From an uncultured virus (IMG/VR IMGVR_UViG_3300031994_000060) (Duplodnaviria > Heunggongvirae > Uroviricota > Caudoviricetes), in IMG/VR virus record IMGVR_UViG_3300031994_000060: DNA of 64,000 bases; one strand, 5' to 3'. Below the pieces are notes generated by a model that had not been told where the DNA came from, made no database searches, and worked only from the letters and a program-made list of their open reading frames with translations. A program made the position numbers and the translations under genes. Each line of letters opens with the position of its first letter. Within the stretch, counting starts at the first letter, position 1. Positions 3,438-51,783 of the stretch are shown here, piece by piece.

Positions 3438-3973
3438 ATAAAATCCATTGGGAGTTGGATAATAGTTATCTTCATCGAGAAGATGCAATTAGAGAATGAA
3501 AGGATGCATTAATTACTTATGAGAATGATAGTCAAGATTCAGAGTATGATCATTATATTGATACATTTGAATCTTCAGATGGATTAGAAGATTACATTAG
3601 ATATAGAATGAATACATTCTGACCATCACAAGTAGCAAGAGATCTTAAAGATTTAGATTCAGATGATGATTATTATATGATCGATGATGTATATTGATAT
3701 ATATCAACTATATCTGATTGAGATGTTATGAGTTGGTTAGAAGATATACTTGATGATATCTGAGCACCAAGTGATGAGTTCATGGAACAAGAACTTGAGA
3801 AAAGATTGAAGTTCAAGATTGAAGCATGAACATCATCAAGTATGGATGATCTATATTATCAAGCTGAAGTGTTTGAAAATGAATTATATGGTTATGAATT
3901 TGATTGAGTTCATTGAATAACAGAAGCATTGGCTGATAAGAACTGATGGTTCATAAATGAAGATGATAAATAG
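3404..3973 (+). CDS. acidic hypothetical protein
   Basis: 189 aa D/E-rich frame. Confidence 0.65.
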
Positions 3974-3995
3974 TTTTATATCTTTATTATATATT

Positions 3996-4928
3996 ATGAA
4001 GAAACTTTTAGTGTTATTAGCTTCAGCATTAGTGCTAGCATTTGTAGCAGTTGAAGCAAGTTGATTAAATCCAACAAAGACAATAACATTGTCACATTGA
4101 TGGAATGTAGTATCAACACCAGCAATCCTTTCATCTATTGATTTCTCAAATGGATGAGAAGGAATTACATTCTCAAAGTTGGATAACTGAGAATGGAAAA
4201 GCGTAGCAGCAACAGTGGCTAATATCAAACCACTTGAATGATTTATGGTTTATAATAACAATGATTCGGATGTATCAATGTTATTAACTTATAAAGAAGA
4301 TGTGTCACCAGCACAATCTATCTTACAAAAAGATCTTGATTACTGATGGAATTTGTTATGAATTACAACAACAGAGTCACCATTCAGTAATATCTGATCA
4401 GCAGCTAGTATGTCTATTGACATGACAGATTGAACAAACAAAGTTTGATCAAGTTATATTCATAATTCAACATCTAGTAGCGTAGCTAATCCAGAATTAG
4501 GTGAAGCTTATTTTGTATATGTTAATCAACAAAATGGTTTATATGGTTGAATAAATAATGTTTGAACAGTTATTGAAGATATACCAGCTGAAGAACCAGT
4601 TGATGATGTTACAAAAGATTTAGCTTATGTAACTTCTATGGTGAGTGATTGAGCTGAAACAACTTATACATTTAAAGCTTGATTAACTAATACAAATATT
4701 GTTTTGTTTACATCAGAGAAAGCATTGAACGAACCAATTACAGTAGAAGATTGAACAACATTATTAGTTGCTAATTGATTTACAACAGAGAATGTTGTAG
4801 AGATTTGATATAATTGTATTGAGTGAACAACAACTTCTAATGATTGTGAAAAAGTTATAAAGAAATCAGAACATAAAGATTTCTTTAAAGTATGACAATC
4901 ATATCTTAAAGTTTATAAGGTGAATTAG
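3996..4928 (+). CDS. secreted cell-surface-type protein
   Basis: Signal peptide MKKLLVLLASALVLAFVAVEA; two L-x-x-GWN-hh repeats; T/S/N-rich. Confidence 0.8.
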
Positions 4929-4951
4929 TTTTATATATTTATATGCCAATT

Positions 4952-5974
4952 ATGAAAAAACGATTATTAGTTATACCTTTTATGTTAGCTTGAAGTTTTG
5001 CTTCGGCTAACAGTTGATTACCTGAATTACCTATGAATATTTATGGTAATATAAATCTTTGATCATCAGAAATTAATTGATGAATATTAGATATTTATGC
5101 AGGTAATAATAAGTTAGCATCATTTGATATTGTATCAGGTAAATATGGATCAAATAAAGCTACAGAAGAACATCTAATCTTAAATGAATTTGATTGAAAT
5201 TTAACATTTAAAGTTAGATATAATTGAGAAACTTATGATGTAAATTCTATTGATGATACAAATAAAAGTGATTGATGTCCAAATAAAGATAATATTACAT
5301 TTGTATCAAAAGATTGTAGATACGATATCACTCTTAAAGAAATCGTAAAACAAGAAGAAAAGACAGTTACAAAGTCTTATAGTTGATCATGATGACATCG
5401 TAATACAATCGTTAAAGAAGAACCTAAAAAAGAAAAAGTATCTTGGTATAACGAATGAAATCAATATGAGATATTAAGTAATTGATATTCAAGAGAATTT
5501 AATAATGCATATACATTTGCATATATGAATTGAATAACAACTATGCCTAGTATTCAACAAGCAGATATGAATTGATCATTGACAAGAATAGCGATGGCAA
5601 AGATGTTATCTCAATATGCAATTAATGTTTTATGAAAGAAACCAGATACAACAAAGATTCCAGCATTTGATGATGTATCAATAGAATTGGATTATAAGTA
5701 TAATAATTGAGTATCATTAGCTTATCAATTATGAATTATGTGAGTATGAATAAAAAGCTTTAGACCATATGATTTGGTTACAAGAGCTGAATTTGGAACA
5801 GCTTTATCAAGATTGTTATATAATACTCAAAATGGTAGAGATATATATTATACACCACATTTAAATAAATTAATGAATATGTGAATTATAACAAATGTTG
5901 ATCCAGATTTACAGGAAACAAGATGATATGTAATGCTTATGTTGATGAGAAGTGCAAAGAATTTTATATCTTAA
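4952..5974 (+). CDS. secreted S-layer homology (SLH) domain protein, host-like
   Basis: Signal peptide MKKWLL...FASA; C-terminal SLH-type motifs (LTRIAMAKML, FDDV, FRPYDLVTRAEF, TRGYVMLMLMR). Confidence 0.85.
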
Positions 5975-31622: not shown

Positions 31623-33296
31623 TTAAGAAGCCAATATCATATATACAACATCAGCATTCTTTTCTTCTGGTGTTAATGCATCGTATTGTGCTTGTGTTAA
31701 TTTTGTTATAGGACGTGATGATAATGCGTCTGTCCATGAATATCCATTAGCTGTTTTAGACAATAACTGTCCAGCAGATCAACTACCTGGATCCTCTATT
31801 AGTACTGGTTTATTAGTTACATTGTCCCAAGTTACATATATAGGTCCAGCTGTTCATTCGATAAGATAGATAACATCAGCTTCTTTCTCCTTTTGAGGAA
31901 GTGCGTCATATTCAGCTTGAGTGAGCTTTTGTGCTCAACTTCAAGTAATGAGATCATCCCATCAATAACCATTTTCCATCTTCATTAATACTTGTCATTC
32001 GTAACCATCAGCTGGCATAATCATTACATCAGGTTTGTCTGTAATATTATTCCAAGATACTGTTAGTTCTCAAGCATTACCTGTAATAAGATATATCACA
32101 TCGGCATCTTTCTCTTCTGGAGTAAGTGCATCATATTCAGCCTGGGTTAATTTCATTGCTACTACTGGAACAACAGCAGTTCCTGTAATAAGATAGATTA
32201 TATCTGCTTGCTTCTCACTTGGTGTTAGTGCGTCATATTGAGCTTGTGTAAGCTTAACAGCACTACTTCATCAAGCAACAGAAGTCCATTCATATCAATT
32301 AGCCGTCTTTGTTAGTACCTGTCCAACGCTACCATTAGCTGGCACAATCATTACATCAGGCTTATTAGTCACATTCTCCCATGCGATTGTTAATGTTTGT
32401 CATTGTCAAGTGATAAGATAGATAACATCAGCCTGTTTTTCTTCAGGAGTTAAAGCATCATATTGAGCTTGTGTAAGTTCTATTACACTTGATCATCCTG
32501 ATTGAGATGCTTGCCATGCATATCATGATGCTGTTTTAGTAAGTACTTGTCATGCAACTCAGTTTAATGGATTAACCATAACATCAGGTTTACCTGTTAC
32601 ATTATTCCATGCAACTGTAATTGTTCCTCAAGGTCAATCTCATTCTATCAAATAGATAGTATTAGACGCCTTTTCTTCTGGACTTAATGCATCGTATTGT
32701 TCTTGCGTAATCGTCATTACGGCAGTTCATCCGTCAACAGCCAAACTTCAGCTTAATGGATCCCAAGCTGTTCCGTTCCAAGCAACATTAGTTCATGCTG
32801 CAAATTTAGGATCAACTAAATGCTCGGTCTCTACATTATATACATCTCATACTACCATACCATCTTGAGGTAATGCATTATAATTAAGAACACTACCTTT
32901 ATATCTGTATACACTACTTATTGATGCAGAGATTAATGAGTCAACTTCTGGCTTTGTATAGACAGAAGTTACATTAGCCTTAGCATTCAATGCAGTTTGT
33001 GTAGCATTACTGATAGGTTTATCAGCATCTGATGTATTGTTAACATTTCCTAATCAAACATCTGCTGCATCCATTTGGATGTTGATGTTCTTGTCGTTAA
33101 CTGCATTCGTTGTTGTTGAATCAAACTGAACTCAATTTTTTAGAAACGTTATAGTTGAATTATTTACTACCTGTCCTGGAGGTATGTTGTCTAGATCCCT
33201 GAAATCGTTTGTGAATGCTGTTCTTCACAACTCAGATCTATAAGGTTTTCTAGCAATTTCTTCTATAAGCTTCTGTGAATTCGTAAGATTTGGCAT
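31623..33296 (-). CDS. tail/head fibre protein 1 with six TQxxYDAL repeats
   Basis: MPNLTNSQKLI start; DVGLGNVNNTSDADKPIS motif; repeated LTQAxYDALxPxEKxADxIYLI and GQVLxKxxxGYxW. Confidence 0.8.
31640..32720 (-). repeat. six degenerate intragenic repeats (fibre modules)
   Basis: gcatcatattg/gcgtcatattc cores near 31680, 31905, 32130, 32232, 32457 and 32690. Confidence 0.8.
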
Positions 33297-35003: not shown

Positions 35004-35050
35004 GATAAAATTACATAGAATATAAAATATTATTGGCTGGCCTACTTAGT

Positions 35051-35305
35051 TTAACGACCAATCATATCTATAATCTCTGCTCATCTATCTGGTACAAAAG
35101 TCGAAGCCTGTTGCTTTATCTGATTTGCTATATCTGGTCTAGATCTCAAAAGTCATGGCATAACTTTTGCGGCTAACTCATTCAGACTAGCAGGATCATT
35201 AAAGTTTACATTCTGTAATTCTTTAGGATCGATCCCCAACTGGATTAACTTATTCTTGATTCATCAGAATGCGTTAATCATTTGTAATAGACTCATCATA
35301 TCCAT
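35051..35305 (-). CDS. hypothetical protein
   Basis: MMSLLQMI...QLGIDP. Confidence 0.6.
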
Positions 35306-35313
35306 CTGTAATA

Positions 35314-35532
35314 TTATTTATGATCTAAATCTATATCGTATTCTGCATAGAGTTCTCAGAACTTGCGACGATATTTACGTTCCAAGTATTGCTTTTTCAT
35401 AAGAAACCCAGCATACCTGATAACATGTTTAAGGATATCTTTGGCTTCACCAGGTCTCTGAAGCATATCCTCTGTTACAACATCTGTTAAGATTTCAGTT
35501 CCGTCAAAGTAACGGTTCTTGATTTCTTCCAT
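35314..35532 (-). CDS. hypothetical protein
   Basis: Open frame. Confidence 0.55.
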
Positions 35533-35587
35533 AATAATATGGTTAAGATATAAAAGTAATTGTATAATAAGAGAAATATGTAAATAT

Positions 35588-35615
35588 AAAATATATCGTA
35601 GAGATTTTTTGTCAA
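35588..35615 (-). promoter_or_regulatory. promoter TTGACA-N16-TATTTT
   Basis: Divergent intergenic region. Confidence 0.55.
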
Positions 35616-35768
35616 TAGGTATGAAGTATTATTATGAAGATAGGTTAATCTAAAGTTAATAATATCTTGAAAAATTACATAGAATGGTTAAATAGAAAAT
35701 GTGTCAACATATTATAAAATTTGTTGCGGGCATATATTAAGACTCATTTTATATCTTAATGCAAAAAT

Positions 35769-36020
35769 ATGCTCAACTGTATAATATGTTGATGAGAGGC
35801 ACGTTGATGCACTTATTGTAATCATTGTGCTAGAATCAAATCTGATGCGTGTTCGGTACTATGTCAACAGATCAACAAACTTGAGAAGTTGTTTCAGGTC
35901 AAGAGGAAGAACCAGGAATGGTTCGACAAATTCAGACTGTATACAAACAATAGTCTTAAGATGATTGAAACGCTGGAAATGTATGAACGCAAAAAGTATG
36001 AAAATAGAGTGACTAGATAG
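35769..36020 (+). CDS. small zinc-finger protein (CIIC...CNHC), counter-oriented
   Basis: Two CxxC pairs; own terminator at 36003-36032. Confidence 0.65.
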
Positions 36021-36063
36021 TCACTCTATTTTTAAAAAAAGAGAGTTATATAACTCTCTTTTT
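36003..36063. terminator. tandem terminators for convergent genes
   Basis: ATAGAGTGACTA-ga-TAGTCACTCTAT and AAAAAGAGAGTTA-ta-TAACTCTCTTTTT. Confidence 0.8.
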
Positions 36064-36068
36064 ATATA

Positions 36069-37673
36069 TTAGCTATCAATAACAAATGTTATTATATTTG
36101 ATGCAGTTCATGCTGCAGGTGCTGTATTTGATACTTTGAATATATATGATTTTCCACTATCTCAACTATAAGCCGTTGCTCATGTACTAGCATTAGATCT
36201 AATAGTTGCAATATCTGAGATAGTTGATTGTTTATTATTCCAAGTATACTTTTCTCAAGCTGTTACTAATCAAGTAGATGTTCATCCTGAAGAAGCAGCA
36301 ACACATGAGTATGTAGTATCTGTAAGATTAATACATACATTACTTGAAGCGTTAGCAGTAAATGATCATTTACAAGTATTATTTTGGCATATTGTTAATG
36401 TAGCATTATTCACAGTAGGAATAGTAGGTTGTCAAGTTAGATCACAATATTTACCAGATGTAGCAACTTTTGCTAAAGATGGTTTATTTTTAATATAATC
36501 TTTACAAGTAGTTGTCGCTTGATTCCAATCACTTTGGATCTGTGCAGCAGGTATTGTTGGTTGTCATGTCAAATCACAATATTTACCTGATGTTGCTACG
36601 GTAGCGAGACTAGGTTTATTTTTTATATAATCTTTACAAGAACTGCAAGATTGATTCCAATCACTCTGTATTTGAGCTGCAGGTATTGTTGGTTTATTTA
36701 AGATTACTCACATACCAGTAGTAGCATTCCAATCGCTTTGTACTTGTGCAGCTGGAATTGTAAGACTGACTGCTCATGTACATCCATTTACTGATGTAAC
36801 TGGAGCATTAGCATATCAATATCAACTAGCTGTTTTAGTTAATACTTGTCATGTACTTCATGTTCAAGGATTAAATCATGTAGGTACAGCTCATCAATCT
36901 TTAATTATTTTACCAGTAGTTCAATCAAATACTGCTAAATGTCAGTTAGTAGCAGAAGATGGTCAAGTTACATCTCAAGTTCACGCTCAAGATAAAGCGT
37001 CATCAACATACTTTTTAGTGGCTGGTTGATAATTTCAAGTAGGAGTAAATGCAGTTGTATTTGTTTTAGTAAGTACATCAGCTGTTTTAGCATATGAACT
37101 TAAATCAACTAATCAAGCCAATGGATCCCAAGCACTACCTGTCCATGCAACATTTGTTCAAGCCTCGAATTTAGGATTTGTTGTATGCGCTGCTTCAACA
37201 TTCCATACATCTCAAGTTTTGTTTCATGTTGTAGGAAGGCTGTCATAATTCGCTTTACTACCTTTATATTTATATACAGAAGACAATGCAGTATTGATTG
37301 CATTACTAATAGCAGTATCTGTTTGTGCACTTGTATATACATCAGCAGCATTAGCTTTTAGATTCAATGCTGTCTGAGTAGCTGTACTAACAGGTTTATT
37401 AGCATCGCTAGTATTATCAACATTACCTAATCACACATCAGATGCAGACATAGTTATGTTAATAGATTTAGCACTAGAAGCATTAGTAGTAAAACAATCA
37501 ACTGCTGTTCAATTCTTCTGAATAGTAATAGTAGAATTATTAACAGTAGGGATAGTAGGCTGACCAGTCAAATCGCAATACTTACCAGAAGTAGCAACAG
37601 CACATAGTGAATTGCTATATGCTTTCTTATTCATCTCTTCAATAAGTTTTGCAGAGTTTGTTAAGTTTGCCAT
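36069..37673 (-). CDS. tail/head fibre protein 2
   Basis: MANLTNSAKLI; VATSGKYCDLTGQP x3; QSDWN...YIKNKP repeats; DVGLGNVDNTSD. Confidence 0.8.
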
Positions 37674-42040: not shown

Positions 42041-44929
42041 CTAAAGTTTGTCGTTCATTTCCGAACTATCACAAGCTGAACCTGATAAAATTTCATCACA
42101 GTATTCTCACTTGTTTATAACAACCTTATTCTCGAATGTTGCATCTGTTAGATATGAAGGTTTAGTTCTACTAATTCATACAGGTTCTAATAATCATATT
42201 TGATCGATATGTGTATTTTCGATATCCTCATAATCAGGATCTAACACATAGTATCATATATAGAATGATCAGAACTGTACATTATCTATTCATCTAGCTG
42301 TGATACATAATTCCAGAACATTGGCTGGTGCATTAACAGGTTCTTTGATACTCGCGAACATTGCCAGTTTAGACTCATAATCAGAATCCTCTCACATTTC
42401 ACGAATGGTCTTTGTTGTAGGTTTGGATGTTTTTAAGTCACGATATCCTGCCACCTCATTAAATAGAGTATGCGAATACATTTTTCAATGTCAATAGATT
42501 TTCTCACCATTTTCATAAACCATAATAGGTTTTGTAGATTCTTTCAAAGATAGCAACTGTGGATATCTAGTAGTTGTAATATCATTCATACGCTCAAATA
42601 GCTTTCAACCTAGAGTAGTATTGATCTCTCGAGTACTATCATTGGTTATATCTGAATGATCTCAGATTGCTGTCTTAACATATTGAATATGTTTCGGTGT
42701 TTGTAATCATTCTTCTCATACATATGCTGAGATAACTTCTACGATTTCTCATCATTGGATTTTTGATTCTTTATACTCTTCTCAATCTTTTTCAACAAAC
42801 GTATCCCATCACCATGTATTTCATTTATTTACATAGACATAATCTCATAAGAATATTCAATCTTTTACATGGACAACTCTTGCTCAATCTATCATCCAAT
42901 AATACCAACAGTTATAATGCTTATCATATATCAATAATTTTGAATAATGTGTACTGTCGGTATAATCTGATGAAGTATCATCTGGATCAGGCGATACATC
43001 ATTATTATCAAAGATAGATATATATCTATGATTAATAGTAGCATCTATATTTATCTTATCAAATCTATTATCTAATGGTTTGATATGTCAATTAACAAAG
43101 AATCAAGTATCTGGAGTAAATTGGATTGTTCAATAATATGCACTGAATTGTAATGTCTCTAATAGTTTTCATCTTCTAACTATTAAGAATTCTCAATCAT
43201 CATTATAGAAACTACCAGGCGAATAATATCAATCTTCATTTTCAGAAGCATTAATAAAGTTACCAGCAACAAGCGCATCTTGATTAGCTATTGCATAGAT
43301 GTTTTTAGGTCAGAATAGTAGTAATGATCAATACATAGATCTAACATCAGTTAATCATGCAGGTATTCTAAATACTCATCTAGCAGTATCTCATGTTGTT
43401 GGAGTAAACAATCAATTTAATGATCACGATCAAGATACATATAATAAGTTATCAGCTATATAACATATTCTTGTTCACCATCTTTCTATTCCTGTAATAA
43501 TATCTTTATTAGTTGCAGTAGATATTAATGTATCAAACAAAAATATTCTTTTATCTAATATAGGATACGGATCCTCTACTTCAAAATTTTTAGAGATATT
43601 AATTGATTGACATGGAGTTCATCAGAAATCTTCACCTCTATATATTACATCAGGTAATTCATCATCACTAGGTATTGTAATTTTATCATCTTTTCTAGAA
43701 TAGAATCAGTTAATAGAATAGATTTTATTACCTGCTGCAAAGTATGGGACTTCTCAATATTCTGGATAAGCCCATAATACATTTCATATATCTGAAGATT
43801 CAATAACTATATTTTCTCATTCAACTTTTTCAGGGAACTTTATAACTTGGATAAGTTCTGATACATTAGGAATAAAATATCAATCAGGCGGTAATTCTGA
43901 TTTCATAATTATATTCATCTGTTCTGTATCCATTTCAGGAACAGTTAATCAAGTTACATAGATTCATAAGTTTGGAATAGATACCCAATCTGATATAGCT
44001 ATTCTATTTTCTACATTATATAAATAGGCAAAATATTGTCATCAGAAATATATAATAGCTATCTTTGCTTCTCATCAATCTTTTCATTTAATTCACTTAG
44101 GAGTACCTATACCTCAATATCCCATAATAAAATGATCTGGGTTACATTCAGCCGATTCATATTCTTTTACTAATATAATAGGAGAAGTATCAGCATCATC
44201 AAAAGTATCTCACGTACAATTAACTTCATCTATTTGTTGAATATAAATACGCATACGAGCAGAAGCCTCATGAGTTTCTATTATTCATTGTTCGTCTTCA
44301 TTTGATGCAGAAGACTCTATCGTTCTTTCTCTTATATCTCTTGAAGGTGGTGTTTTTAATCTCTCATGATTTCTTGTTTGATATTCTCAATCATCACAAG
44401 TATCTTCATTACCATCACCTCATCATCTCATAAATGGGACATTTGCTTGTTGATGTCAAATTTCTCAATTATCTGCTAAATATCATTCAAGATCTGTATT
44501 GACTCTCCATGTTCTTTCTCAATTATCATTTAATGTATAATCTCAATCTACACGAGTTTGTCAATATGGTTCAACTATTTCATTACTTCTTCTCATATAG
44601 ATCCTATATCATTGGAAAGTAATTACATCAGTAAAGTTAGCATTACTCCATCATTTTTCTTTTGTTAATCTTGATACTCATAATTCTTGTAAAGTTATTT
44701 GACTATTTCTTTTAACATATTTATATAATTTACATCTCTTTAATCCTTTACACTTCTCAAACCAAAATTGCTGTTTAGATCAGTGAACAACATCTATATT
44801 CTTTGTAGGTCAATTACCAGACCATGGGTGTTCTACTGGCTGAACATTACACAAAACATTGAATATCTGGTTGGTATTCTCTCTATTAGGTTTTAGATCC
44901 CAAGCAGTTACTTGATCTTGTGCTACCAT
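42041..44929 (-). CDS. tail nozzle / tubular protein B-like stabilisation protein
   Basis: 962 aa beta-rich frame directly after adaptor; function inferred from size and synteny. Confidence 0.6.
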
Positions 44930-45735
44930 TGATTACCAAGATTTACAGTATAAAATGGTTGTGGTTGAGTTTCTAACTCTATACTACCAGGCATTGCATT
45001 ATCTACAATTTCTAATGTCTCAGGCACGATAGTATCATGTTTTCTAAGATAATCTAACTCTTTTCTATATAATGAATAATATGTTAAGTCTTCTTGTTGC
45101 CTAGCAATACCTTGTTGAGGTACTACTGATGCTCATACTATCCATGCTAATACTTGCATGAATGAGTCTGGTAATGGAATAATATCATCAAACTTCTCTA
45201 CCTTAACTGGTCAACAGAAGTAAGACATCCAGAGATCATCAACTACTTCATCTCATAGATCTACTTTTACTATCCTTCAGTCTAGTCATCACATACCAGA
45301 AATATATGAACCAGAGATTTGGTATTGATATGCACATAATTTATTCTGAGGAAGCACTTGTTTTAACTCTAATGGTTTACAAGGTGTTGTACAATTACAT
45401 TCACAACAAGGAAGGATTATATCTTTATCAGGTAAATTCATATCACAAAAACAAGAATCGATTCAGATCTTATCTATATCTTTCCAATTACCTCACCAAA
45501 ATTTATCTATCTTTCTCACAGGCCATCTTGATAATAAGGCTCACTGTGATTGTTCATTCATCTTAAATAAGTCTTTTCTATGCTGCCAAGACCAGTGCAT
45601 TCATTCATAATTGTAAATCATATTAACTCACATATTGATTAATCCAATAATAGAGTTAGGCCCTACCGCATAAGAAACACCGTGCTGATTTACGATAGGA
45701 TAGACTAATTGCATAAATTGCTTTACTGTGTACAT
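44923..45735 (-). CDS. head-tail adaptor / tubular protein A-like
   Basis: N-terminal helices, WSW, DDIIPLPDSF pattern; Cys-rich insert; synteny. Confidence 0.6.
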
Positions 45736-46075: not shown

Positions 46076-46102
46076 AAAAAAAGCCGTGAGTTTTTCACGG
46101 CT
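46076..46102 (-). terminator. intrinsic terminator
   Basis: AGCCGTGA-gtttt-TCACGGCT with A-tract on +. Confidence 0.75.
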
Positions 46103-47003
46103 ACTTATATAAGGCAATAACTTTATCTAAGAATTCATGTGAATAGATATTAGTATATTGGTTTATAACATCATCATTAAAGTCATTCAATCAAAGACGG
46201 AGTGGCGTATGCATTACCATTGGATGTTCTCTGAGATTGATATTACTATCATATCAGTATCTTTCAGCATCAGTAGCCGACCATAGAACTACTGCTTTAT
46301 TTCAGAACGCTTTAGCTACATGATGAAGACAACTATCACATCAGACTACTGCATATCTAGCAGCTAATGATACTACAAATCTCATATCAGGAGTGTCTAG
46401 ACATACACATCATTCAAGCTTAGGTTGGTCTGGTCTTTCAACAACATAGACAGTATATCATTTATTAATGAGTCAGTTAGCTAAGTATTGGGCATCTTCT
46501 GGCCTCATACTTCTATATGATTTGTCTGATCAATTGGCTTGAGTAGTCGAACCAAATGGCTGGAATAAAATAGGTTTAGCTCAGTCTAGAACATTATTTA
46601 ATTTCTCATGTTCTGCCAAGAACAAGCAAGGCTGAGGTGTTAGTCATCAAATAATTCAACCATACGGAGCTAATTGTTTAGCAGCGATCTCTAACCAGTT
46701 CCTTGCATCATTAAAGAATTCAGGATCAGTATATGGTTCAAGTTCTACATAATCATTTCACATTATAACATCACGGAATAATCTTCTATCATCTAATCAG
46801 TGAACTGATTGGATGTATGGATTACCTCGAAATGCTAATGGCCGTGAAGTAACTACTTTAACAGGCCTAGTTTTAGCAACGGCAGTGATTGCTCATGTCA
46901 TAGCAACACATCTACCTAATCAACCGTCAATACGGATTACCAAGGTTTTCTTTTCTGGTTCCTTAGTCTTTTTAATTTTAGCAACGTGTTTTTCCTTTTT
47001 CAT
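46101..47003 (-). CDS. GT9-like (heptosyltransferase-fold) glycosyltransferase
   Basis: IDGGLGR, GNPYI, ILFQPFGS, GCDSCLHHVAKAFG..AVVLW. Confidence 0.8.
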
Positions 47004-47105: not shown

Positions 47106-47133
47106 AGAGTAAGGAAAATTTTGGGAATTGCAA
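47106..47133 (-). promoter_or_regulatory. promoter TTGCAA-N16-TACTCT
   Basis: Upstream of GT9. Confidence 0.65.
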
Positions 47134-47136
47134 GAG

Positions 47137-47167
47137 AAAAAAAGAGAGAATTAATCTCTCTTTTTTT
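47137..47167. terminator. terminator, left border of switch cassette
   Basis: AAAAAAGAGAGA-attaa-TCTCTCTTTTTT. Confidence 0.8.
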
Positions 47168-48047
47168 AAAAACTAAATTCTCAACTCTCAGTAAACTCAT
47201 GAATAACATATCAGCATCAACAAGTTTTAGTTCATCATGTAGCCTCTACTCATCATTGAGGATACCATATGTATGCTACTCATCAGTTTCATGATTCAGG
47301 CCATGCTGTTCATCAATAAGAGTTTGCTCATTTTCATCATGTTCAATAGCATCAAGGACAGCAAGTACATCATTCATATACATAAGTTGAATTACCTCAT
47401 CATCATCCAGCTCAACAAAATGTTACAGCTCAATTTCATATGGATATAGTAATTCAATCTCATCAATTTCAACCACCTGTTACTTCACGTCATTTTTTAT
47501 TATAGCATATGAAATAAGCATCTTGTCAAATTCATCAAGCTCAACCTCCTCATCATGCTGCTCAACATCATCATCAATTATAAAAATTTCATCATCAATA
47601 TCATTGTCAATCATATCAACATCATGGTCATGCAAGTCATCCTCAACCTCAACTTCATCAACAACGTCATACATCACATCTACCTCAACCTCATCATCAT
47701 CAATAAGCAACAATATCAAATCAACAAGTATCTCATCAATTACAAGTTTGACAATTTGATTGTAATATTCATCAACATCAAACTGTAATTGGATATGTTC
47801 CAGAAGATATTGTTTGGTTACAACACATTACTACTCATCAAGCACCTCATCATCCTCAAGGTTTACTTCAGTAACTAGAACTCAACGTTCAATATCAACC
47901 TGCACCTCAACCTCAAACCAATAGAAAGCAGACACACATCTCTTTAATTAAAGGTCGTATCTTAGTACCTCAAACATATACTTCAGAAATATCAGAAGTT
48001 CACTTCTTTAGAGATTTAAGTTCAGTTGCTCAGATATATATACTCAT
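47166..48047 (-). CDS. Gly-rich adhesin-like protein L
   Basis: MSIYIG...EVYVGGTKIWP...FLLVGGGGAGG...GGGGGAGG...VIHEFTESGEF; 293 aa; most Gly encoded by TGA. Confidence 0.85.
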
Positions 48048-48068
48048 TAGAAAATATTTTTTAGAGTA

Positions 48069-48098
48069 AATTTTGTATAACAATTATTGTGCAAAGTA
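48069..48098. repeat. left inverted recombination-like site AATTTTGTATAA-CAATTA-TTGTGCAAAGTA
   Basis: 48079-48100 is a perfect 22 bp inverted repeat of 48197-48218. Confidence 0.85.
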
Positions 48099-48148
48099 AT
48101 GTTTATCAACTGAAATAACTATCAGTTTTTAGACATTACTTTAGAAAT

Positions 48149-48176
48149 AGAGTAACTAAAAAATTACAAAATGCAA
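48149..48176 (-). promoter_or_regulatory. promoter TTGCAT-N16-TACTCT inside the IR-bounded segment
   Basis: Same spacer and same -10 hexamer as the GT9 promoter; points at protein L. Confidence 0.65.
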
Positions 48177-48198
48177 GATGAAATGTATAAAAAAATAT

Positions 48199-48228
48199 TA
48201 CTTTGCACAATAATTGTTGTGCAAAGTA
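48199..48228. repeat. right inverted recombination-like site TACTTTGCACAA-TAATTG-TTGTGCAAAGTA
   Basis: Perfect 12 bp arms around an asymmetric 6 bp core that is the reverse complement of the left core. Confidence 0.85.
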
Positions 48229-48256
48229 GATCTTTTATATGCCATGTAATTTTTTT

Positions 48257-49909
48257 ATGAGTATATACTTATGAAATAAAACAATAGTATATTCTGATAT
48301 GCAATGACCATGTCCAGATTGATTCCATGTACCACTAAAATCTGAAATGAGTTCTCTTGTAGATATAATTACATCTACATTCTCATTATGAAAAAATGGA
48401 ATGATAAATTATCTAAAAATGCCTATGGCATGATTAAGGGCATACAATAACTGAGGTGTTTGAAATCAATGATCACAAGCATACTATTGGACTTCATCTT
48501 GGTGAGGTGAGGGTAAAGCATGATATATGGGCTATGCTGCTGCTTATAATCCTGTTAGTATTGGTGATAATAGAACATGAGATGCTTGTTCTATTCGTGC
48601 ATTTAAAAATTCTCCTGTAATTCCTGATTCATCATGGACTACACTATATGATTGAAGTAGTGTAGCAATATGAGCTTGAATATTCCATAATGTTTCACAT
48701 TGATTAATATCAATAAGCTGAGATGGTTCTACATGGTATACAATACAAGATAAGAACCTATGAGCTACTATTGTATGGGACTGATCACGACAACAATCTA
48801 GTTGCTGATGATATTTTCAACGATGAAATAATTATATGTTCCCATTTAGTTGAGATATTACTACTGCAAATGGTATGGTTGATGCAGGTACATATTGACC
48901 ATGAAATTATTATGATAGCTCAACATTTATAATACAAAAAACTAGACCACGAAGATGGGACAGCTCAGATAATAAAAATCTATGGTGATGAGAAACACAA
49001 TGAACATCTACAGTAACAGTACCTGCTGAAATAAAGAATCTATACATATGAGCTAATGAAGCTAAAGAGGTTTATGTAGGTAGTAATAAAGTACGACCTA
49101 GTATACCTTCTAATTATTCCTTGGATTTCTTAGTTGTATGATGATGATGAGGTTGAGGATGATCAATAGGTAATGGTGAATGTATACAATGATGAGGTTG
49201 ATGAGGTTGAGCTGTAATTGAATGTAGTAATTACTTAATATTATGAGGTTCTATAAATGTTACAATTTGACAATGATGATGTGGATGATATAATTGAGTT
49301 CCTTGTAATTGATGAGATACTTGTTTCTATGATATAATAGCACCATGATGATGAGCTTGATGAAGTCCTTGATGGGATGGTAATAATTGACATGATTGAG
49401 CTTCTTGATGATGAGGTGCTTCAAATGGTAAATATAAATGAGTTTGATGATGTTGAATATGTAATTGTTTATATTGAAGTAACTGAAATTGCACTCCAGG
49501 TAATTCATCTTGTTGAGGTTGATGATGATGAGGGGCTTGATGAAATAAGAGCCATTGAACAAATAATTGACAAATAGATTGAGATGAATGAATATACTCT
49601 AGTATCTCTTGAACTTGTGTATGATATTGATGATGATGAGGATGAGGGAAAAAGTATAGTCCTGCTTGATGCTGAAAAGCATGATGATGAAATTGAGGTT
49701 GAGGTGCTTGAACTCCTAATACATGATGAGGTTGATGATGATCAGGTTATTGAGGTTGAACTTGATGAAGTTGAGTAGTTATTGTTAGATACCCTACTAA
49801 TTGAAATTATTGAATTAAATCATCAACATGATGAACTTGTTGCTATATATGTAATTGATACTGTGTTCATGTATTTAATGAAGACTGAACATTTGAAGCA
49901 AAATGATAA
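48257..49909 (+). CDS. FISUMP/Fib_succ_major-like domain + Gly-rich adhesin-like protein R
   Basis: MSIYLG start (alternative ATG 48239); QGPCPDGFHVP, DKNLGAT, YFQWGNNY; then EVYVGSNKVWP...FLVVGGGGGGG...VHVFNEDGTF; 550 aa. Confidence 0.85.
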
Positions 49910-49975
49910 AAAGAGAGATTAAATCTCTCTTTTTAATATTAAAAAAGATGTATTAGTTTTTACTAATACATCTTT
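49908..49975. terminator. tandem terminators, right border of cassette and end of capsid gene
   Basis: AAAAAGAGAGA-ttaaa-TCTCTCTTTTT and AAAGATGTATTAGT-tttt-ACTAATACATCTTT. Confidence 0.8.
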
Positions 49976-49989
49976 AATTTTTCTATATA

Positions 49990-51783
49990 TTATAGAGAGA
50001 ATCATTCAAGGATAGCGTATGGTCCATTCTCTTGTCCGATACCAACGAAGATGAATGCAAATGATGTATAAACATCAAAACATTTACAGTTTCCGATGAT
50101 ATAGTTAGGAGTAACGTCCTTAATTCTTAATCATTGTACAACATTCTTTTTAACACTATTACTTGGCAATTCAATGTTGAATTCAGGTAATGTTGCAGTT
50201 CCGATTAAATCTCTGTCTAGGAATACGATCATTCCAGAGTTCTCTGATAATTGTTCAAGATAGATATCTGTCATAATTTCAAGTCCTCCGAATTGAGTAG
50301 TAACAGAGAATGTTTGACCAAAGTTGAAGTTATTTGAACTTGGTAACATTTCTTGCCATCCTCCAAGCTTTTTGAATGCAGGTCTCAATGCTAAGTAAGT
50401 TGAGTAAGCTCTTGAATCCATTACAGCAGTAATAGTTCCTTTACCTCCAAACTTAGTATTTTGTACTTGAGATAATGTTTCGATGAAGATTCTAGCTTTG
50501 TCTTCAAGAGTTACAGCAGCAGCTGCACTTCTAACGATCTTTAACCAAGGCTTTTGAGCGTGAGCGTTCATAAGTTCAGTATAAAGTCCCATAGTAGATC
50601 CAGGGATCTTAGAAGCGTTATTTGGAGCTCTGTTTTCTCCTAACCAGAATGTTCTATATTCTTGTTCAACAAGATCTCTAGCGATGTTCTGTAATCTTCT
50701 TCCGATTACTGCATCAATTCCACCAACTTCAGGATATCACATTCTAAGTTCAGCATCATCGAAACAAAGTTCTGTACCGATATTCTGAGCGAATGATCTC
50801 CTGATTACATGTCCTTGAGTTTGATATCCTCCAAGAACTGGATTACACCAATCGAATGAGTTATATTCGAAAGTGATTTGGTCTCCTGGATAGATTCCGT
50901 CCATGTATTTGTCAGGATTATTTAAACATACATAGTTATCATTGTAACTGATAGCTGATCCTTCAACTGAAGATCTACCTGTTGCAGTGAATAATGGTCT
51001 ATTAACTCCGTCAGTTCCGTTACCAGCACCTTCGAAAATTACGAATGGATACATAGCTTGTCCTCAGAAGTTAGATGGTCTAGACAATGGATCAGCACCC
51101 ATAGCTACAACTGGTCTAACGATAAGGTCAGCACAACATCCAGCAGCTCAACAATCTCCTTCTTTTACTTCAGCAGGATCATGTCTCATTATTCTAAGTC
51201 TTGAGTTGATAACAACTAAGTCTTTATATTTAGGATGATTGAAGTCGATAGGTAATCATCTCTTATCACAAAGATAGTATTTAACATTTACAGATTCAGC
51301 TGTAATTTCTTTAACTGATTTGTAAAGATACATGATAGGTCTTTCTGGTGCAAATTCTGACCAAACGAAAGATTGTCCATCTCTTCCTAATCCAACTTGG
51401 ATATTCTTTATAGATTTGAATGTTGGAGCAGTCATTGGCAATGGACCTGCTTTTTCAGGATCATATAATCCTTCAAGAGTAGTTTGATCAAGAAGTAACT
51501 GAGGAAGAGAACTCTTAGTATCAAGAAGTGCCTTGAACATAGGAATAGCTTCTCCATCATGAGTTAACAAAGGGATTTGATCATCGATGTAGAATTTACC
51601 ATCATCAGCTGGTTTATATAAGATCTGAGCTCAAGAGTCAGATAGGTATGAATAACCTTCAAAGTTTACTCCTTCAAGTCCATAAGCTGGATAATTTTGG
51701 TATTCTCCTTGTATTCCATTTGGACATGGAGTAGTATCAATATTACATCCTGTAATACAGTTTCCACTTGTATTTACGAACAT
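49990..51783 (-). CDS. major capsid protein (SU10/DUF5309-like, with insertion)
   Basis: 597 aa after scaffold and portal; FVWSE, EYRTFWLGE...STMGL, TTQFGGL; strong GGA/GGT preference. Confidence 0.75.

Follow-up and report, generated by a model that had tools for sequence, protein, structure and literature searches.

The question raised by this locus is whether the short non-coding gap between two divergent phage genes, here called L and R, is an invertible promoter and, if it is, which recombinase would turn it. The window, that is the whole 64-kb stretch of DNA that was analysed, comes from a code-25 phage in which TGA is read as glycine, and L and R are long open reading frames (ORFs) only when TGA is taken as a residue; standard code 11 was rejected, as it yields no long ORFs here. 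The gap and its surroundings contain the following features.

46101..47003, - strand: glycosyltransferase-like gene (weak PF01075), in the same inserted block as L and R
47139..47165: hairpin terminator closing L, 96% complementary to the terminator of R
47166..48047, - strand: gene L, 293 aa, with a short IY.G N-terminal peptide and a glycine-rich domain (phrog_2295, weak PF21722)
48030..48055, partner 48249-48274: second, imperfect inverted repeat (81%), covering the start codons of both genes
48070..48097: site A, dif-type 11-6-11, core CAATTA; inner arm perfect, outer arm with three C-to-T changes relative to the arm of site B
48079..48100: left arm of the 22-bp inverted repeat, comprising core, inner arm, and three inner and two outer bases
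48093..48142, - strand: predicted imperfect stem-loop with which the transcript from the candidate promoter would begin (-17 kcal/mol, from the fold of the native leader sequence alone), moving along on inversion
48149..48176, - strand: candidate one-way sigma70-type promoter, TTGCAT-16-TACTCT, inside the segment and facing L
48189..48195, - strand: A/T tract upstream of the -35 box, a possible UP-like element
48197..48218: right arm of the 22-bp inverted repeat, exact reverse complement of the left arm
48200..48227: site B, a dif-type 11-6-11 site whose arms form a perfect palindrome; its core, TAATTG, runs opposite to that of A
48257..49909, + strand: gene R, 550 aa, with an IY.G peptide, a Fib_succ_major-type domain, a second peptide and a PF21722 glycine-rich domain
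49908..49934: hairpin terminator closing R, near-identical to that of L
49990..51783, - strand: gene next to the block, by its position probably that of the major capsid protein

A preliminary description of this DNA had proposed a perfect 22-bp inverted repeat whose arms lie in 12-6-12 palindromes with oppositely oriented asymmetric cores, set between two divergent paralogous genes that start MSIY(I/L)G and are closed at both ends by near-identical terminators. The repeat was confirmed as an exact reverse-complement match, with 96 bp between its arms and 130 bp between the core centres of sites A and B, and the opposite orientation of CAATTA and TAATTG was also upheld. The same was true of the terminators and of the gene pair, L being 43% identical to the C-terminal half of R. 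The palindromes held in full at site B (12/12 at 48199-48228), but site A reaches only 8/12 (48069-48098). As 11-6-11 sites, B is perfect and A has three mismatches, with 0 expected by chance. Among perfect inverted repeats of the 64-kb window with a gap of 40-1000 bp, the 22-bp repeat alone reaches 14 bp or more, and the longest repeats in 30 dinucleotide shuffles were 13-16 bp; a chance origin is excluded. The DNA between sites A and B comprises 102 bases, all of them non-coding.

The identity of the palindrome was sought in bacterial genomes. The pattern ACTTTGCACAA-N6-TTGTGCAAAGT has 18 exact matches in GTDB genomes. Eleven of the 12 named records belong to SR1, Gracilibacteria, Peregrinibacteria or Peribacteria and one is labelled Gastranaerophilales; the 6 further records are unnamed. 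Allowing up to three mismatches, the pattern is present in 72 of the 141 SR1-order genomes, which are incomplete, and is single-copy in 66, while the reversed-pattern control was found in none of the 141. The host copies have conserved arms and a core that varies around T(A/G)TA(T/C)C. Under a matrix of the host arms, site B scores 41.1 bits and site A 19.7 bits, the weaker, outer arm of A contributing -0.8 bits. In all three single-contig chromosomes sampled (1.1-1.2 Mb), the host site lies within ~10-50 kb of the + to - GC-skew switch, as judged from coarse profiles, each built from 20-21 samples of 20 kb: the site is at 498 kb and the switch at ~485-490 kb in G128, at 410 kb and 445-470 kb in G080, and at 389 kb and 320-340 kb in G001. 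The dnaA gene is not opposite the dif-type site in the genomes checked, and in G061 the two are just 36 kb apart. We gave the skew more weight because dnaA is also far from the skew-defined origin in G001, G128 and G080. The geometry agrees with that of XerA, whose dif is described as an 11-6-11 inverted-repeat site (accessible text of PMC5357621). Judged by its distribution and position, the palindrome is probably the dif site of the SR1/Gracilibacteria host group. A literature search, with subscription papers and supplements outside its reach, found no description of a dif for this group, and the accessible text of PMC6251912 contains none.

Two host genomes show further arrangements at such sites. 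In G072, two contigs (C4 and C10; L085:1-55 and L086:1-55) open with the same 55 bases, which hold a second dif-type site with core TACACA, one copy of it within the frame of a long surface-protein-like ORF. A host shufflon or a repeated island is possible, the intervening DNA being absent from the bin. In G096, two distinct left flanks are joined to one right site half (L094:1625 and L090:48), a pattern as would be expected of an island integrated at dif.

Among the code-25 phage contigs examined, this phage alone has two dif-type sites. Single sites occur in L002:2999, L006:2999, L008:2266, L092:3613, L083:5353, L084:12449 and L007:2999, mostly at a boundary between gene blocks, and some of their cores are private. 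In L083 and L084 the cores are host-like and lie near the contig's own tyrosine-recombinase-like gene, in the manner of IMEX integration. All five related phage records lack a dif-type site, the complete relative G143 has none, and the core common to A and B is absent among the 150 host rows listed. With tyrosine recombinases, matching inverted cores permit inversion, deletion is blocked by mismatches at the first and last core bases, and integration is disfavoured when the core is foreign. The private, inverted 6-bp core common to A and B would therefore allow inversion and disfavour deletion or chromosomal integration, with the qualification that partial core homology is enough for some IMEXs (PMC5357621, in its accessible part).

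Tyrosine recombinases (PF00589) occur in 138 of 141 SR1-order genomes. There is one match in 52 of them and at least two in the other 86, where more than one enzyme could be the acting one. All five sole-copy host recombinases tested exceed the NF040815 XerA cut-off and none exceeds those for XerC or XerD; these tests cover enzymes of SR1-order genomes, the putative host group of the phage. FtsK-gamma is present in five of five host genomes and lies ~1.6 kb from the recombinase in G001. The phage window, on the other hand, has no recombinase family among the 67 ORFs scanned, and a profile of the host recombinases run against its six frames gave a best E of 1.9 (positive controls, about 1e-50). 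The phage genome extends past the 64-kb window searched; the complete 75-kb relative G143 has no tyrosine recombinase either. Binding of Xer and strand exchange at sites A and B are predictions from sequence.

The DNA between the sites appears to contain one directional promoter. Upstream regions of host-order genomes, in sets of 136 and 517, were used to train two-box models; both, seeded with the sigma-70 consensus, converged on TTG(A/C)NN-16-TA(T)AAT. The one good minus-strand match that had been described as aimed at the left gene is where it was placed: it is the best site in the L-R gap (- strand, 48176), with 7.9 and 8.8 bits under the two models, where real upstream regions have medians of 8.7 and 7.9, scores to be read knowing that 84 sites in the window reach at least 8 bits. 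The weaker rightward match, TTACAA-N16-TATAAA at 48164-48191, is also located as reported, but it scores at background level under the host-trained model; the best rightward sites in the gap have 3.0-3.4 bits, and the medians of reverse-strand controls are 3.3-4.1. An in-silico flip left both sites unchanged and reversed the promoter asymmetry to face R, with leaders of ~95 and ~102 nt. A twin of the promoter motif lies at 47106-47133, upstream of the glycosyltransferase-like gene (0.02 expected, for a pattern chosen after the fact).

Site B itself folds into a hairpin (-16.8 kcal/mol, with a weak T tail) that was flagged as terminator-like on the + strand, and the A/T tract at 48189..48195 gives it a T tail on the - strand, again a terminator-like match. 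In the flipped state the hairpin would lie in the leader of R and could attenuate R. A third terminator hairpin of the L/R type is found at 36033-36062, directly after the fibre gene 36069-37673, whose C-terminus resembles a fibre-like gene of L081 with an L-like gene after it; a position near this hairpin may be where L was moved from. The adjoining interval 35004-36068, ~1 kb between tail genes, has no ORF of at least 90 aa, and short frames and promoter-like sites are present.

What the two genes encode was approached through their domains and neighbours. R is the only long + strand gene within the structural block. The halves of its Fib_succ_major-type domain are in swapped order. The domain has 1261 relatives at E<=0.001, and 18 of the 141 host-order genomes carry an expanded set of it, up to 19 copies per genome; L as a query found nothing in the same 141 genomes. 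Five of the 57 R-domain relatives scanned also carry PF22337 or PF24243, which are tail-fibre repeat or tail-tip families. A single-sequence fold of R (pLDDT 31) was rejected. The predicted model of the Fib_succ_major-type domain (pLDDT 90) matches phage Fib_succ_major models at E 8e-6. Its weak matches to the C-type-lectin-like adhesin tips InvE, Lcl, Bd2740 and invasin have Z of 2.9-3.6, below the trust level of the tool, and Foldseek against the PDB and PDB sequence searches returned no significant match. Fibre-like genes of L081 and G143 are followed by genes whose N-terminal peptide is of the L/R type. Synteny, domain fusions and the weak fold match suggest that L and R may be virion attachment proteins of the adhesin type. 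Short look-alikes of R's domain raise the read depth at 48290-48346 in the source runs.

The block running from the glycosyltransferase gene through L and the putative switch to R is an insertion relative to G143, because the capsid homolog of G143 directly precedes its homolog of 44923-45735. GenBank phages yielded no capsid homolog, and DNA matches there reach only E 0.2-0.6. Elsewhere in the window, the fibre-like protein at 31623-33296 has six PF24243 tail-tip repeats and could offer docking sites for IY.G-peptide proteins such as L and R, and the early genes at 3957-5974 include two for host-like surface proteins whose starts resemble signal peptides; one of the two has a weak SLH domain.

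We put the probability that the 130-bp segment is an invertible promoter driven by host Xer, with no phage invertase, at about 55%. This reading is supported by the two inverted sites flanking a predicted one-way promoter and by the separate terminators of L and R. A host Xer would synapse site A with site B and invert the segment between them; the terminal core mismatches would block deletion, and the foreign core would disfavour chromosomal recombination. After a flip the promoter would face R instead of L, and each phage genome would mainly make one attachment protein. In this strain inversion is probably infrequent, because the outer arm of site A is weakened. For the fuller proposition, that the chromosome-dimer resolvase of an episymbiotic CPR bacterium has been repurposed as a phage invertase, with two private-core dif copies flipping a minimal promoter and thereby choosing the receptor-binding module, we would give even odds.

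The switch from L to R had already been suggested in the preliminary description. The anatomy fits and host Xer supplies a candidate recombinase, but the contigs show one orientation only. In X1 and X2, from one sheep-gut sample that may be the source of this DNA, one contig at a depth of about 12-13 crosses the whole segment without difference, and no strand-change joint occurs among the six joints listed for these contigs. As contigs drop minority forms, a near-even mixture is all that this result rules out. Among the matches listed for RNA run X3, identical contigs cover the glycosyltransferase and capsid genes, and L, R and the switch have none; the low depth of the run makes it uninformative on expression. 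A second locus with both sites was sought in viral contigs, where the scans gave 0, 1 and 0 matches, the one (L030) being rejected as chance. Metagenome contigs scanned at 87-117 bp spacing with near-perfect inner arms gave 25 matches, none related, and the 141 host-order genomes gave four unrelated pairs whose outer arms are missing. L070, which looked site-like, was rejected for absence of coding context. BLAST of the switch DNA against the 141 genomes returned short matches only, many of the best ones at host sites.

Relatives are visible in part. A 158-base contig from bovine gut aligns with 48076-48194 with 11 differences and one gap, its alignment beginning within an A-type outer arm; its non-coding interior is ~91% identical over ~119 bases, similar to the capsid-gene pieces in the same run. 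The alignment of the X4 contig breaks off within the A tract, at 48194, and leaves 25 letters unaligned. At the protein level, two of 247 homologous proteins, P0064 and P0161, both of them from other assemblies, have an upstream start and begin M-C-K-V-Y-S-K-K-(Y/H)-F-L-M-S-I-Y. In that frame the L side of the window reads L-Y-K-I-Y-S-K-K-Y-F-L-M-S-I-Y, and arm B reads L-C-K-V. Other phages thus appear to carry an intact arm and the leader of L before different cargo, the DNA being deduced here from translation. P0064 fuses an R-like domain to the C-terminus of L, and P0161 has the N-terminus and linker of R. Among relatives the slot appears conserved and the cargo shuffled, a protein-level pattern from which orientation is not readable. 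Recombination at the second, imperfect repeat (48030-48055 and 48249-48274) would exchange the leaders of L and R, and could explain proteins like P0161.

These data also bear on the alternatives. Two modules, each of dif site, leader, fibre gene and terminator, could have been joined head to head by inverted duplication or Xer-mediated fusion and since become locked: the pair perhaps flipped once, site A decayed, and L is now fixed ON with R as silent or weakly expressed cargo. The single orientation in the assemblies agrees with such a history, as do the three C-to-T changes in the outer arm of A, an arm that appears intact in two relatives, and the bovine contig, whose alignment also starts within an A-type outer arm. 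The paired terminators and similar gene starts suggest duplication as well. A locked pair, however, sits poorly with a core and inner arm that are perfect over 22 bp next to leaders that bear no relation to each other, with R being an intact 550-aa frame, and with an interior as similar in the bovine contig as pieces of the capsid gene; on balance we consider it unlikely. It is more doubtful still that site B serves the phage for its own multimer resolution or integration, with site A and the promoter incidental, or that Xer binding merely represses the promoter. Phages with one dif-type site, whether private or host-like in core (L002, L006, L008, L092, L083 and L084), are a precedent for this, but those sites are single, whereas here two matching inverted cores flank exactly one promoter, and the pair lies in an accessory block missing from the complete relative, which itself has no such site.

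The preliminary description had also named operators as the alternative, with both genes transcribed from fixed promoters; the palindromes would then be bound by a phage or host transcription factor that controls two divergent promoters. Palindromes upstream of genes are often operators, and weak rightward promoter-like matches do exist. The match to the probable dif of the host group weakens this explanation, the host counterpart being found in single copy near the terminus, with a 6-bp core that varies, and the rightward matches score like reverse-strand controls. We regard operators as very improbable, and a chance repeat is excluded as described above.

If host Xer does turn this segment, mobile elements, which use this system for integration and for multimer resolution, would be using it in a third way, for phase variation of phage gene expression, and an either/or switch of roughly 160 bp would suffice with one recombinase. 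Such a switch has no invertase gene beside it, so surveys anchored on invertases would miss it. The candidate dif consensus for SR1/Gracilibacteria stands regardless of the switch; it marks the terminus where dnaA does not and ties code-25 phages to their hosts.

In fimS, a short segment bounded by inverted repeats carries a one-way promoter. The same layout is seen in Salmonella hin (accessible text of PMC8987985) and in Bacteroides capsule promoters (accessible text of PMC13501310), but these have dedicated invertases and are mostly ON/OFF, whereas here the sites are dif-like, the window has no invertase and a gene lies at both sides. Viral invertons are described as poorly understood in the accessible part of PMC13501310, and the known phage inversion cases, as far as the accessible parts of PMC8987985 and PMC9881135 go, alter tail genes. 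Mu Gin and P1 Cin likewise make an either/or choice of tail-fibre-type protein by DNA inversion, but there a phage serine invertase flips coding DNA, while here a promoter only would be flipped, by a proposed host tyrosine recombinase (PMC8987985, accessible text); the segment is non-coding, and neither the 67 ORFs nor the six-frame profile search contained a recombinase. IMEX elements such as CTXphi, VGJphi and TLCphi are phages that exploit host Xer through a dif-like site, but they integrate at chromosomal dif, whereas the two sites here share a core absent from the host rows listed and have an arrangement that would suit intramolecular inversion (accessible text of PMC5357621). The single-recombinase systems XerA, XerS and XerH offer a further parallel, the 11-6-11 site being as for XerA and the host enzymes passing the XerA cut-off (PMC5357621, accessible text); in contrast to them, the host group has FtsK-gamma, and many of its genomes have at least two tyrosine recombinases. 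No case of host Xer inverting a phage promoter at copies of dif turned up in the literature search. The pXerC/D (pdif) pairs of Acinetobacter plasmids are also inverted dif-like sites with identical 6-bp cores on a mobile element, and Xer inverts the DNA between such oppositely oriented sites reversibly (accessible text of PMC9947245). On those plasmids, in contrast, the inverted DNA is a multi-kb resistance module and the sites have XerC and XerD arms (PMC9947245, in its accessible part). A pdif module carries one or more genes between its two inverted sites, while the phage sites have palindromic arms and enclose a ~100-bp promoter region of only 102 non-coding bases. The system is thus neither of the Gin/Cin type nor a pdif module; it is built from dif-type sites and would work like an invertible promoter.
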